NCBI GenBank assembly: GCA_947476645.1
Contig: CANJRM010000004.1
Location: 7,533-71,532, forward strand
Length of the DNA: 64,000 nucleotides
DNA from: Bacteroidota bacterium
GTDB taxonomy: Bacteria; Bacteroidota; Bacteroidia; Chitinophagales; LD1
Reading direction: 5' to 3'
Both the position numbers and the translations under genes were made by a program. Shown here piece after piece: positions 29,043-63,536 of this stretch. Every line of letters begins with the position of its first letter. The first letter of the stretch is position 1. The notes beneath the pieces were generated by a model. That model saw only the letters and a program-made list of their open reading frames with translations, ran no database searches and was not told where the DNA came from.

Positions 29043-29080
29043 AAAAACCCTCCCCCGAGTACTCGGGGGAGGGTTTTTTT
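29043..29080. terminator. Bidirectional terminator (perfect 36-bp palindrome)
   Basis: AAAAACCCTCCCCCGAGT|ACTCGGGGGAGGGTTTTT between convergent genes. Confidence 0.9.
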
Positions 29081-48500: not shown

Positions 48501-48560
48501 TGTCATCCTGAGCTTGTCGAAGGATATTTTCGAATACGCTTCGACAAGCTCAGCGTGACA
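48501..48560. repeat. REP doublet (inverted arms) between convergent genes
   Basis: TGTCATCCTGAGCTTGTCGAAGG ... CGCTTCGACAAGCTCAGCGTGACA. Confidence 0.88.
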
Positions 48561-60002: not shown

Positions 60003-60023
60003 AACAGCCAAAGGCAGAAATAC

Positions 60024-60058
60024 AAAAACAGAAAGCGGCACTGCCGCTTTCTGTTTTT
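60024..60058. terminator. Perfect 17-bp-arm hairpin terminator
   Basis: AAAAACAGAAAGCGGCA-C-TGCCGCTTTCTGTTTTT. Confidence 0.8.
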
Positions 60059-60411
60059 AGATTTGAAATGATTATAGAAACAAATAATAGAAATGAAGGG
60101 CGGCTGTTTATAAACGTGCAGGATGTAACTGTTGAAAGTGATGGTGATGCTGAAATTTAAAGAAGAGTTAAAATTTTTTGGAGCGCACACAATATTTTTG
60201 GGGGTATGAGCGTTTGGAAAAAAGAGAGGGGGAGATGAAGGCGGAAGCAAACAAAAAGAAGAAAGTAGAATTGAGGATTTAGAATTGAGAATCGGAAACA
60301 AAAAAAGTCGGAAGACCCAAGACGGAAGTAAAACAGAAATCAATTAATCTAAAACAAAAGAATAAGCAGATGTAAGACTTCGACATTTTTCATAACCTAA
60401 AAACAATTATC

Positions 60412-61359
60412 ATGAAAAAGACGAAGTATAATTTTAAGCAGGCTGAGTTATATACTATAGCTTACTTTATTCTGGAAGCAGTAAGTTCTTTACTGGGTAG
60501 ATTTACCGCATTTAAAGGAAAATATGTAGCCGCATGGGTAGCAGACCGCATTGCGCAAGTAGATGCCGCTGCGGATGAGCCCGATGAGGACCAACGCAGT
60601 GCCACGCACGAGGTGCTGCGTGTGCAGTTGCTGGCATTGGTGCAGCAATCGTTGATTGCTTTTAAAGCTATGGAGCGATATATTGCAGATGTGTTTCCGA
60701 TAGATGAGCAACAGATAAACATAGATGCCGCAGGCGGCACTCAATATGCCGATGCTGCTAATGATGATTTTGATGCGTGTGAACTGATGCTTAAAAATCT
60801 AAGCAAGTTTGCAGACGATAATGAAATACAATTATTAAACGGTGGTTTAAATATGCCCGCTATTTATAAAACGAATCTGGATTTGCTGAAGGTTTCGTTT
60901 AAGGAAGTGCATTTGAGTTTTATAGGTGCCGAAGGCGGTGCTGAAATAGGAACCGATGCAAAGATTGATTTGAACAATGCTGTTTATACGGAGATTATCA
61001 GTTCGATAAATGCGGATGCGCAGGTAATTTTTGATTCGGATGCTGATGCTGCGAAACGTAAACAGTTTGTGCTTGAGCATCAGTTGTTTTTAGTGCGCGG
61101 TGCAGGTGTAGCAGGGATGCGAGTGCATGTAACTGATAGTGCTGATGAACAGGATATAGCTGATGTGGAAATAAAAGTAACACCGGGAGATAAAGCAGTT
61201 AATACTGATGAGAACGGTCGCGCGCTTTTGCTTCAACTTGCAGCAGGTAATTACACGATAGCAGTGGCGAAAACCGGATATGTGACACAGGAAATTGCGG
61301 TGGCTGTGGAAACAGGAACTGTGAAAAGAGTTGATGTGGTGCTGGTGAAAAATCCGTAA
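60412..61359 (+). CDS. Hypothetical protein: helical N-domain + carboxypeptidase-regulatory-like domain
   Basis: Helical ~230 aa then TDENG...AGNYTIAVAKTGY; no signal peptide. Confidence 0.8.
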   Translation: MKKTKYNFKQAELYTIAYFILEAVSSLLGRFTAFKGKYVAAWVADRIAQVDAAADEPDEDQRSATHEVLRVQLLALVQQSLIAFKAMERYIADVFPIDEQQINIDAAGGTQYADAANDDFDACELMLKNLSKFADDNEIQLLNGGLNMPAIYKTNLDLLKVSFKEVHLSFIGAEGGAEIGTDAKIDLNNAVYTEIISSINADAQVIFDSDADAAKRKQFVLEHQLFLVRGAGVAGMRVHVTDSADEQDIADVEIKVTPGDKAVNTDENGRALLLQLAAGNYTIAVAKTGYVTQEIAVAVETGTVKRVDVVLVKNP

Positions 61360-61360
61360 T

Positions 61361-61396
61361 ACAGACACAAGACAATAGACTTTAGACGTGAGACAA
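61361..61396. repeat. 7-bp-period AGAC tract
   Basis: AGAC at 61363, 61370, 61377, 61384, 61391. Confidence 0.8.
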
Positions 61397-61459
61397 CAGC
61401 CCGCATTATTGCGGTTTGTTTGTATTGAATAGATTTATGAGCCGATTATTTTTTAGCTT

Positions 61460-61669
61460 TTACTTTCTTTTGGCTTGAACCAAAAGAAAGTAACAAAGAA
61501 AAGTTCAAGACTGTGTGACTTTTGGCTAAAAATCATTCCCACTGCCTAAACTGCACAAACTCGCGCATCAAAATTTAACATCGACAGTTAATGCTCGTTG
61601 GCGCTCAGACAGTGCGCAGTTTTTAACGGCAGTAAGAATGATTTTTTTAACGCCAAAATTCACAAGGTC
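61460..61669. ncRNA. Candidate structured RNA / non-autonomous element (pseudoknot, triplex-competent module, long rod)
   Basis: 14-bp perfect stem 61460-73/61480-93; loop CTTGAA complementary to TTCAAG 61504-09; stacked helices across 61509-61669; transcription not shown. Confidence 0.6.
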
Positions 61670-61751
61670 GTTCCTTATGTTGACAAAATGCATAGCTCAT
61701 ACCTAAAGGAAAAAATAAATAGAAGCAGTCATGAAAGATTGGGGCTGTTTG

Positions 61752-63536
61752 TTATTTTACTAATAACACCATTCCTTTGCGCTCCACCTTTACACCATCG
61801 TTGGCATAAAACTGAATAAGGTAAGCATAGCCGCCCTGCTGCGCTTCTTTGCCGTGGTCGTTTCCATCCCAACCAAGTGCAGGGTCGTTGCTTTCAAAAA
61901 CCATTCCTCCCCAGCGGTTAAATATAGTCAGGGTGTAACCCTTAGGGTCACCATATATAATAGTAGGTTTAAAAACATTGTTTACACCGTTAGGTGCAAA
62001 TGCATTGGGTATATAAATAATAGGGCGGTGAATAATGCAAAGCTCGTTTGAGAAACTCGAAAGTGTTTGATTGAAACCCGCAAGTGGCAAGTTTAAATCA
62101 TACACGGCTTCAATACGGTAACAAAAAATGCCGTCTGCTGTCAACAACTGTTGCAACGAATCAGAATAACTGTTTATCCCCGGCAGAAAAGTTTTAATCA
62201 ATTGATAACCGCTGCCCGAGTTGCGGTAAAGATTGTAACGCAGCACATGTGCGCTGTCAATTTCCAAATCGTTCCAGGTTAAGTTGGCAATGTAGTAATC
62301 GAACAGTTCGCCTTTCAAACAAATTGTTTTTGCTATAGCAGTGGGGTATTGATTCTGGCAACTGTCTACGGCCGTGGTGCGGTAGTAATAAGGACTGTGC
62401 TCGGGAGTTGCAATGGAGTCAACAAAAGTTTCGGAAGGATTAAGCGGAGAAGGTGCGTTCAACTGCGCCACGTTTGTAAAACTCAGATTATTTCCGCTGT
62501 TCTCTATGGTGTAATAAATGAGTTCTCCTGCCACATCAATAATCCAGGTAACCCAAACGTGGTTGGCTAAATCAACGGTTACATTAGTAATGTAATTGTA
62601 AGCAGGCGGCTGAACAATAGAAGCGCGCATGCACATGAGGTTGCTGTTTGAATACACGTTTGAATCAGCCGCACTAATGCCACGAATAAAAACGCAAAGC
62701 GAATCGCCATCATTATAATTAGTCAAACCGTAAGTCTGTGTGCCGCTGTCAACAAGTGCCACTATAGCAAATGCTCCTGAGTTTCTGCTGAGCCAAACTT
62801 CATATTGTTTAACTCCCTGCGGCCAGTTGATGTAGCGGTTCCAGTTAAATGTAATTTGCTTAACACAAGCGGCTGAAGATTGAGTAGCGTAAATAGTATT
62901 GTGCGGAAACGTATTGTATGAACTGAATTTATCGCATGAATCAAAAGCAGCTATAGTATAAGAAACAGATTGTGTAGTTGGGTCAGCAGCAAAATCAGTA
63001 GTGGTGGTATTGAATCTTCCGTAAACAGTATCGAAAGGGAACACCTGTCCGTTTTGCGCATAGTAGTAAATAACGTAGCCCTGGGTTTGTGGTGAAGAAT
63101 CAGGAGCCCAGTTGATAACTGCATCACCACTTTGCGTTACATCTACATTTACAATATCAGGCGTAGCGGGGTTAAGATTATTTACCGTATCTGATTGCAG
63201 CACCGTTGCACCCGGGCAATTGTAATCTGCTTCTATGTAGAAATACCAAGTTGGCGAAATTGAAATGGCATTTAAATATACAAATGATGTAGCTGCCTGA
63301 TTGCTTTCGGCAAAAGTATTGTAAGGACCAGAGCTACCAGTACTCGAAGCATAAATAGTGTATTGCACAAATGCACCGCAGGGATTTGCAGGAGGATTAG
63401 TCCAATACAAAGTAATGTTGCCGTTCGATGCATCGGTAATAACACATTGCAAATCGGGCGCTAAAATAATTTGGCTGAAACTTCGGAAGAAGAAAAGAAG
63501 AGAAAGGATGGAGATTAGAAAATGCTTTTTGTTCAC
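61752..63536 (-). CDS. T9SS type B (gliding-motility-associated CTD) protein with FN3-like repeats
   Basis: Signal peptide, repeated W...Y.IY beta modules, IYIPNAFAPNG...IFNRWG...GWDG CTD. Confidence 0.88.
   Translation of the reverse strand: MNKKHFLISILSLLFFFRSFSQIILAPDLQCVITDASNGNITLYWTNPPANPCGAFVQYTIYASSTGSSGPYNTFAESNQAATSFVYLNAISISPTWYFYIEADYNCPGATVLQSDTVNNLNPATPDIVNVDVTQSGDAVINWAPDSSPQTQGYVIYYYAQNGQVFPFDTVYGRFNTTTTDFAADPTTQSVSYTIAAFDSCDKFSSYNTFPHNTIYATQSSAACVKQITFNWNRYINWPQGVKQYEVWLSRNSGAFAIVALVDSGTQTYGLTNYNDGDSLCVFIRGISAADSNVYSNSNLMCMRASIVQPPAYNYITNVTVDLANHVWVTWIIDVAGELIYYTIENSGNNLSFTNVAQLNAPSPLNPSETFVDSIATPEHSPYYYRTTAVDSCQNQYPTAIAKTICLKGELFDYYIANLTWNDLEIDSAHVLRYNLYRNSGSGYQLIKTFLPGINSYSDSLQQLLTADGIFCYRIEAVYDLNLPLAGFNQTLSSFSNELCIIHRPIIYIPNAFAPNGVNNVFKPTIIYGDPKGYTLTIFNRWGGMVFESNDPALGWDGNDHGKEAQQGGYAYLIQFYANDGVKVERKGMVLLVK

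Follow-up and report, generated by a model that had tools for sequence, protein, structure and literature searches.

The structured element at positions 61460–61670 of the 64,000-nucleotide stretch of DNA analysed here (the window) is a member of a repeat family whose copies are dispersed, intergenic and non-coding, and the pattern of change among its copies indicates that the structure is under selection. Each copy begins with a hairpin head, in which a conserved pseudoknot probably holds a triple helix, as judged from covariation. The family is best filed as an apparently undescribed and very widespread variant of structured intergenic repeat, and the reading we prefer, with about even confidence, is that of a non-autonomous repeat element that depends on its structure and is mobilised in trans.

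The window copy lies in a 392-nt spacer between convergent open reading frames; one neighbour encodes a CarboxypepD_reg-domain protein ending at 61359, and the other neighbour is a minus-strand CHU_C/T9SS protein gene with its stop at 61752. A first-pass annotation of this DNA had described a stem, a complement to its loop, a pair of mirror tracts and the arms of a rod, and all of these are present in the sequence, each at its place: the head stem (S1) is a perfect 14-bp helix (61460–61473/61480–61493), the mirror tracts are AAAAGAAA at 61482–61489 and AAAGAAAA at 61495–61502, and the rod arms run from a first pairing TGTGA/TCACA to a last pairing TTAAC/GTTAA (Table 1). RNAfold gives the hairpin and one continuous rod (61510–61668) on both strands, at -75.2 kcal/mol on the plus strand (z = -5.96) and -86.1 kcal/mol on the minus strand (z = -6.96), values equalled by none of 200 shuffles in either case. 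The linker at 61494–61503, which is the candidate third strand, is U-rich when read on the minus strand. At the position of the short 3' tail, the alignments and flank listing give ...GGCCG N2-4 GRAAATAC in other subfamilies. The 64 kb of the window contain 20 inverted repeats of at least 13 nt within 200 nt, two of which (I3 and I7) belong to the element. Three other palindromes in the window were noted separately. A hairpin with 28-nt arms at 48501–48560 is a member of another dispersed palindrome family, and its motif is found again in two empty-site spacers, those of G042:C35 and G000:C17; a perfect 18-bp palindrome with A-run and T-run flanks (29043–29078) and a hairpin with 23-nt arms (60018–60064) both resemble ordinary bidirectional terminators.

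Table 1. Parts of the window copy, and CarboxypepD_reg genes found beside copies of the family
Feature	Positions	Strand	Basis
S1 5' strand, head; pyrimidine TTACTTTCTTTTGG	61460–61473	+	Sequence; S1 pairs co-vary in 72 copies
Hairpin loop CTTGAA, pseudoknot helix 5' strand	61474–61479	+	Complement of 61504–61509
S1 3' strand, head; purine CCAAAAGAAAGTAA, contains AAAAGAAA (61482–61489)	61480–61493	+	Sequence
Purine linker CAAAGAAAAG, mirror of S1 purine strand; candidate triplex third strand	61494–61503	+	Run-length comparison
TTCAAG, pseudoknot helix 3' strand, abuts rod base	61504–61509	+	Sequence, family pairing
Rod, imperfect hairpin of ~155 nt	61510–61668	+	RNAfold; compensatory change
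Rod asymmetric loop, conserved	T61527 vs TTAAC 61647–61651	+	
Rod asymmetric loop, conserved	T61547 vs TTAAC 61623–61627	+	
Rod internal loop, conserved, apical	ACAAACTC 61555–61562 vs TCAGACAGTGC 61605–61615	+	
Rod apex, variable	61567–61600	+	
Short 3' tail CG TTCCTTA	61669–61677	+	Alignments; only the long-hairpin subfamily has the tail
CarboxypepD_reg neighbours	window 60412–61359; G000:C58 17400–18668; G000:C77 14481–15185; G042:C60 (L093 410–1500)		

The window's own assembly (G000; 3.56 Mb in 201 contigs, 89.9% complete) carries six full copies of a repeat of ~215 nt, 73–100% identical by BLAST and nhmmer; the six nhmmer matches all have E ≤ 4e-58, and the next match has E 0.054. All six are non-coding and intergenic, two of them (the window copy and the C63 copy) between convergent genes and four upstream of a co-oriented gene. 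Similarity between copies starts at the hairpin base and runs to a few bases past the rod. With 73–96% identity to one another these are old copies, and a recent burst is not seen. With one copy as query, matches were obtained in 20 of 41 related genomes; the genus accounts for 16 (of 24 genomes) and other families of the order for 3 (of 16), with up to 18 matches per genome. The search for copies that had been proposed as a check was positive both within this genome and among its relatives, and the element is more than a chance palindrome since it belongs to a conserved family whose six G000 copies carry compensatory substitutions. Some copies form a subfamily (L005 ~1700–1754; L099, L102, L104, L107 and L121) with an extra insert of 45–60 nt that has its own small hairpin and is located at the head/rod junction or within the rod base. 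A tandem array is also seen at G009:C1 56.3–58.7 kb (L153 2298–4692), where four full copies and two partial heads share one orientation, three of the full copies being 254 and 289 bp apart with partly duplicated spacers.

Comparison of the copies shows that the pairings of the family are kept by compensatory change. A structure written by hand (hairpin, pseudoknot and rod, with the poorly aligned apex excluded) was scored on 72 distinct copies, namely those that cover the model from end to end among 126 nhmmer matches in the fetched loci, with one duplicated locus removed. Paired cells make up 90.0% of the total against 73.7% in shuffles, a level reached by none of 500, and fall to 29–53% when the partners are slid by 1–3 columns; change on both sides is seen in 46 of 62 pairs, and the covariation score is 0.401 against 0.128 for the control, the pairing figures being counts and not probabilities because the shuffle control ignores relatedness. 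Both-sided change affects 12 of 15, 14 of 17 and 9 of 10 pairs in rod helices 60–78, 80–100 and 103–112 respectively, and S1 behaves likewise (pair 19-26 is GC in 56 copies, UA in 11 and CG in 3; 18-27 is GC in 57 and UA in 12; 13-32 is CG in 58 and UA in 12). Within the six G000 copies, 17 of 55 predicted pairs are doubly compensated. The two loop-proximal pairs of S1 are complementary in 270 of the 277 distinct heads pooled from all loci, with nine dinucleotide types, although heads found phylum-wide by a pattern that fixes most bases are informative only at its free positions. Well-aligned rod pairs comprise 2290 Watson-Crick cells and 11 G.U cells.

The first-pass annotation had proposed that the hairpin loop pairs with the downstream hexamer, and this pairing proves to be conserved and to co-vary across the family. 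The pseudoknot helix is 97.4% paired in the 72 copies, in which five of its six pairs are invariant (96–100% paired) and the sixth varies, being AU in 46, UA in 15, CG in 9 and unpaired in 1. This variable pair, between loop base 6 and hexamer base 1, is Watson-Crick in 269 of the 277 heads (T-A 128, A-T 86, C-G 55), and at locus L050 two tandem heads each have their own matching loop and hexamer. On this comparative evidence the loop pairs with a downstream strand as in an H-type pseudoknot, with covariation at the one pair that varies.

A second relationship within the head involves the purine linker, whose A-run matches the A-run of the S1 purine strand in length in 264 of 270 heads. In 22 heads the runs are not four and four; 16 of these still have equal runs (3/3 in four, 5/5 in seven and 6/6 in five, from about seven lineages), and six do not. 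The long class has 42 heads and includes the window copy and others from Bacteroides, Ignavibacteriales and Chitinophagaceae. Of the 39 of these heads that were parsed, 31 have the order four A, G, three A in the stem and the mirrored order three A, G, four A in the linker, and in 38 the two inner runs match in length, with 2/2, 3/3 and 4/4 variants. The linker also grows with the stem, from ~7 nt at 10 bp to ~10 nt at 14 bp. The candidate third strand thus tracks the purine strand in both sequence and length, as that of a major-groove triplex would, and the mirror order and co-changing A-runs are what a triple helix predicts. A Watson-Crick hairpin between the linker and the 5' strand of S1 was considered and rejected: changes in the linker are not matched by changes in the dinucleotide beside the loop, and the long-class mirror order is unable to pair in this way, though it is the order predicted if a third strand ran in register with the stem. 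In a pyrimidine-motif triplex the third strand must run parallel to the purine strand, and we infer that the minus strand has this arrangement, with a U-rich third strand in the position of pseudoknot loop 1. Such a triplex would comprise U.A-U triples and one C.G-C triple in the window copy, and in the short class only four triples, all U.A-U, are possible. Because all six loop bases are used and the junctions have zero length, the hairpin and the pseudoknot may alternate.

Loss of the mirror tract had been named in advance as evidence against this model, and here the outcome is divided: the long tract is absent from four of the six G000 copies and from most copies in the genus, whereas the wider family keeps a co-varying mirror linker together with the hairpin and the loop pairing. 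Family-wide covariation on the whole favours the proposed pseudoknot and triplex. Pseudoknot and triple-helix signatures are rare in bacteria outside riboswitches, and if the triplex is real the family would offer a testable bacterial model for the function of triple-helix RNA or single-stranded DNA.

The acting strand is more likely the minus strand of the window, as judged from mismatches and folding energies. A.C cells, which would read as G.U on the opposite strand, number 69 and are spread over 24 pairs, compared with 14 G.U cells over 10 pairs, and the minus strand is the better folding one in 50 of 72 copies. One U.G pair (61512/61666) is kept in 65 of 72 copies and is a wobble on the plus strand but not on the minus. 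The overall scarcity of G.U would also suit a DNA hairpin. Among the sequencing runs listed as containing the locus, none is of RNA.

These strand asymmetries bear on the possibility that the element is an RNA stability module, the main alternative to the reading we prefer, though an unlikely one. A minus-strand read-through RNA would end in rod and head, and the triplex, in the manner of ENE/MALAT1, would block 3'-to-5' exonucleases by clamping the A-rich strand at the sharp end of the element between two U-rich strands, the repeats being kept for this protection by the host or by the element's own RNA. The order of parts on the minus strand (rod, U-rich linker, U-rich stem strand, loop, A-rich strand) is what this requires, similarity between copies stops at the stem base in this genus, and the run-length and mirror covariation are of the triplex type, in keeping with the preference of G.U-compatible mismatches and folding energy for the minus strand. 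The window gene that ends at 61752 is moreover upstream of the element in the minus orientation, 82 nt away, and the minus-strand read-in side faces a gene in 67 of 118 cases; this orientation bias, however, is not significant. The repeat in Mucilaginibacter extends 25 nt beyond the head, and the short class would have just its four U.A-U triples and zero-length junctions at the loop, both of which count against such a role. As to the narrower suggestion of the first-pass annotation, a 3'-end stabiliser for the adjacent minus-strand gene, a gene-specific role finds no support, neighbours and orientation both being random.

The head has a far wider distribution than the window's genus. A phylum-wide scan with an exact pattern, using one genome per species, found the 45-nt head in at least 120 loci in Bacteroidota (Saprospiraceae, Chitinophagaceae, Flavobacterium, Chryseobacterium, Elizabethkingia, Bacteroides, Parabacteroides, Mucilaginibacter, Pedobacter and Cytophagales), Ignavibacteriae, Calditrichota (Calditrichaceae/Caldithrix), Balneolaceae and Marinimicrobia (Neomarinimicrobiota); matches in two metagenome-assembled genomes (MAGs) labelled Phycisphaerales and Hydrocarboniphaga may be binning errors. 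Five genomes chosen from named loci, four of them complete chromosomes, contain 1, 2, 3, 12 and 43 heads, and the reversed pattern used as a control gives none in any of the five. The 43 heads are in one complete Mucilaginibacter genome. Heads from Bacteroides, Flavobacterium, Ignavibacteria, Calditrichia and Marinimicrobia are almost identical in sequence, and one head type precedes at least three unrelated bodies. The class-I rod, which is the window type, recurs with its conserved loop sequences from Marinimicrobia to Bacteroides, and the head of class-I copies is 45–50 nt long. The phage collection yielded no match to the element, and plasmids only a 40-nt head match in three Parabacteroides records.

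Upstream of 281 heads, the 20 nt outside the stem base are 40% T overall, with 41–57% T at -1 to -5 and 3–9% G at -1 to -3; this T-rich, G-poor flank reflects either a preference for certain targets or a portion of the element not yet recognised. In Mucilaginibacter the additional 25 nt of repeat past the head mean that the head is not always terminal, and seven convergent head pairs 357–415 bp apart form composites with long inverted termini. Other repeats share some of these spacers. In a Calditrichaceae MAG (L194 2288–4106 and 4355–6030) a CRISPR-like array with a 37-nt repeat and a period of ~75 nt adjoins a 460-bp tandem array that contains four identical heads, and in Flavobacterium caeni (L196 4267–4350 and 3400–3483) there are two copies of Flavo-1 RNA (RF01705), one of which abuts the outer side of a head, so that repeats of different families come to share spacers.

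Arrays and convergent pairs of this kind raise the question of whether the element is a DNA-level site, with head and rod serving as recombination or replication signals in folded single-stranded DNA or as cruciform/H-DNA within cassette-like arrays; the head, with its 10-bp arms and 6-bp spacer, could be the site of, for example, a tyrosine recombinase or an HUH enzyme. We consider this quite improbable. Same-orientation arrays with a spacing of 250–620 bp are present in several genomes, the Mucilaginibacter modules are flanked by convergent head pairs, a tyrosine integrase (a fragment) lies near two copies in G042:C60, the extrahelical 5-nt bulges are restricted to one arm, and pairs change almost exclusively between Watson-Crick types, as the rod counts above illustrate. 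No recombinase or integrase is recurrently adjacent to the copies, however, and in the complete genome head orientation shows no replication-strand bias (5+/6- and 8+/10- on a coarse GC-skew map, 20 samples), which leaves insertion into lagging-strand single-stranded DNA without support. The positions next to the spacer vary yet stay complementary, which argues for selection for pairing and not for a protein half-site. Mirror arms of 4 nt, which are those of the short class, are also too short for H-DNA in duplex DNA.

Copies are variably present at orthologous sites, as a comparison of filled and empty sites, proposed at the outset as a check, has confirmed. At the orthologous convergent-gene spacer the two closest genomes (G052 and G042) lack the C63 copy; there the site flanks are 91–93% identical and the gap measures 84 or 102 nt against 304 or 321 nt, and copies carried by G052 are absent from G000. 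One filled/empty pair (G052:C13 and G000:C110) has a 9–10-bp near-duplicate at both junctions that is a possible duplication. Most filled/empty junctions are replacements and other pairs are too diverged, simple insertion being uncommon; the C58, C116, C111 and C77 copies have no conserved flanks or synteny in the two closest genomes. In the window's genus no terminal inverted repeats were found and no target duplication is convincingly clean, and in the Mucilaginibacter composites the terminal inverted repeats are the convergent heads plus 25 nt. The family also breaks assemblies: of 60 places fetched, nine are no more than ~100 nt from the end of a contig, and in four lake metagenomes the element interrupts the unitigs, none of which spans an empty site, and depth on the head is ~3-fold. 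In practice it will thus disrupt metagenome assemblies, and its read-through produces spurious ORFs in six-frame listings.

The genes beside the copies are diverse. Flanking ORFs (246, of which 213 are distinct, from 120 loci among the matches listed) form no BLAST cluster larger than two, and neither a transposase nor any recurrent protein adjoins about 200 copies. These include 20 of the 29 single-head loci in the complete genome, where no ORF recurs apart from those that read through the repeat itself. TnpA, TnpB and IscB are absent beside every copy examined. No autonomous partner with the same ends was found, the 120 and the 20 loci having no recurrent ORF and G000 containing only the six non-coding copies. 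CarboxypepD_reg proteins with an unknown N-terminal region do recur beside copies, in this genus only and in varying orientation. Orientation classes relative to the flanking genes number 17, 17, 13 and 13, and a gene-specific cis-regulator was rejected on account of the random neighbours.

It seems very improbable that the copies are independent sRNA genes of a paralogous family, or that they simply act as bidirectional terminators where genes converge. Strong structure and an intergenic position would agree with such a role, and the window and C63 copies do lie between convergent genes, but the four gene arrangements are about equally frequent, the flanks are unrelated, and a conserved promoter or U-tract is absent. 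Nor is there an Rfam family: in Rfam 15 the best match to window positions 61300–61800 at E ≤ 10 is a snoRNA model with 23.4 bits against a gathering score of 44 bits, and at the gathering threshold the head is without a match in 17 diverse loci, in which Flavo-1 and FopS are matched elsewhere. An intrinsic terminator was rejected in its own right, since S1 is A/U-rich with no U-run after it on either strand and the flanks are not conserved. The published literature, subscription journals not included, yielded no description of the element and one unrelated primer match, so that the first-pass annotation's description of it as undescribed holds within this scope.

Non-autonomous mobility, the reading we prefer, is favoured by the multiple copies, the spread across phyla, the variable orthologous sites and the lack of a link to any gene, and of the three functions that had been offered for the element, a non-autonomous mobile element that folds as a single strand fits best. 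A folded single strand, either RNA or single-stranded DNA, would be recognised by a trans-acting and widely conserved factor, and the spread or persistence of the element would follow from this recognition. Class-I copies, with a homopyrimidine/homopurine hairpin head and a rod of ~155 nt containing two repeated 1x5 asymmetric loops, could then be understood as a recognition handle, the near-invariant head, attached to cargo that is exchangeable for other bodies. Against mobility stand the lack of an adjoining transposase, the age of the copies, the replacement junctions and the absence of replication bias, and a host function would likewise be compatible with near-identical heads in different phyla and with compensatory evolution over long periods. 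The combination of a near-identical head across phyla, pseudoknot and triplex signatures and no linked protein is unusual and, if the triplex is real, points to some conserved factor, host or mobile, by which the head is read.

Structured intergenic repeats are known from Proteobacteria, in particular REP/REPIN and ERIC sequences. REP/REPIN sequences are moved in trans by a single-copy RAYT enzyme and persist for long periods. They are short, non-coding, intergenic and multi-copy and form hairpins or long doublet hairpins, features they share with the element, but the element is far longer, has a pseudoknot/triplex head that is conserved across phyla whereas REPs are lineage-specific, and is absent from the Y1/RAYT-like gene of G000. 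This gene (Y1_Tnp, 153 aa; G000:C70:5184–5528, L275 1489–1950), the only one of its type in that assembly, has the same short motifs and GC-rich palindromes on both sides, which differ from the element; the locus looks like a separate REP-RAYT system, and a RAYT/REP link was rejected because the palindrome flanking the gene is another one. ERIC-type and other rod-forming MITEs are imperfect palindromes of 100–250 nt whose read-through RNA folds into rods. The copy counts and locations of the family are those of a MITE (small, non-coding, multi-copy and intergenic), and like ERIC-type elements it consists of intergenic imperfect palindromes in either orientation that form rods; unlike them it has no terminal inverted repeat in this genus and no parent insertion sequence that we could find, and it adds an asymmetric head with tertiary-structure covariation.

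IS200/IS605 ends, PATEs and the guide-RNA scaffolds of TnpB and IscB combine subterminal hairpins without inverted termini and structured RNA with pseudoknot and triplex features. The element resembles these in its subterminal hairpin and its pseudoknot and triplex signatures and, in the window's genus, in lacking inverted termini, but it has no adjoining TnpA, TnpB or IscB and a T-rich flank in place of a conserved target motif. Integron attC sites were also considered and rejected, as the neighbours are unrelated genes in all arrangements and no integrase is recurrently adjacent, the core site having been compared with a consensus only. H-type pseudoknots with a major-groove triplex are found in telomerase RNA and in the SAM-II and preQ1-II riboswitches. 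These share with the predicted minus-strand fold of the element a U-rich loop 1 parallel to the purine strand of stem 2, but the element has zero-length loops at both ends of the hexamer and, being multi-copy and independent of genes, is not a riboswitch.

Passages of a 2026 review of RNA triple helices (PMC13541005) give riboswitches and a group II intron as the bacterial examples and name ENE-like elements only for plant and fungal transposons. Compared with ENE and MALAT1 as treated in those passages, the element differs in that its U-rich strands would be a pseudoknot loop and a stem strand and not an internal loop. It would be alike in its pair of U-rich strands, in an A-rich tract encoded in the genome that could form U.A-U triples interrupted by a C.G-C, and in a location in repeat-element RNA. 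A tentative and rather doubtful extension of these likenesses is that the family represents an FCB-wide bacterial counterpart of ENE/MALAT1, selfish or domesticated, whose minus-strand RNA would end in an A-rich tract held by two U-rich strands within a pseudoknot and would be protected there at its 3' end, or else that the same fold in single-stranded DNA is the handle by which a protein acting in trans mobilises at least three unrelated cargo bodies in several phyla.
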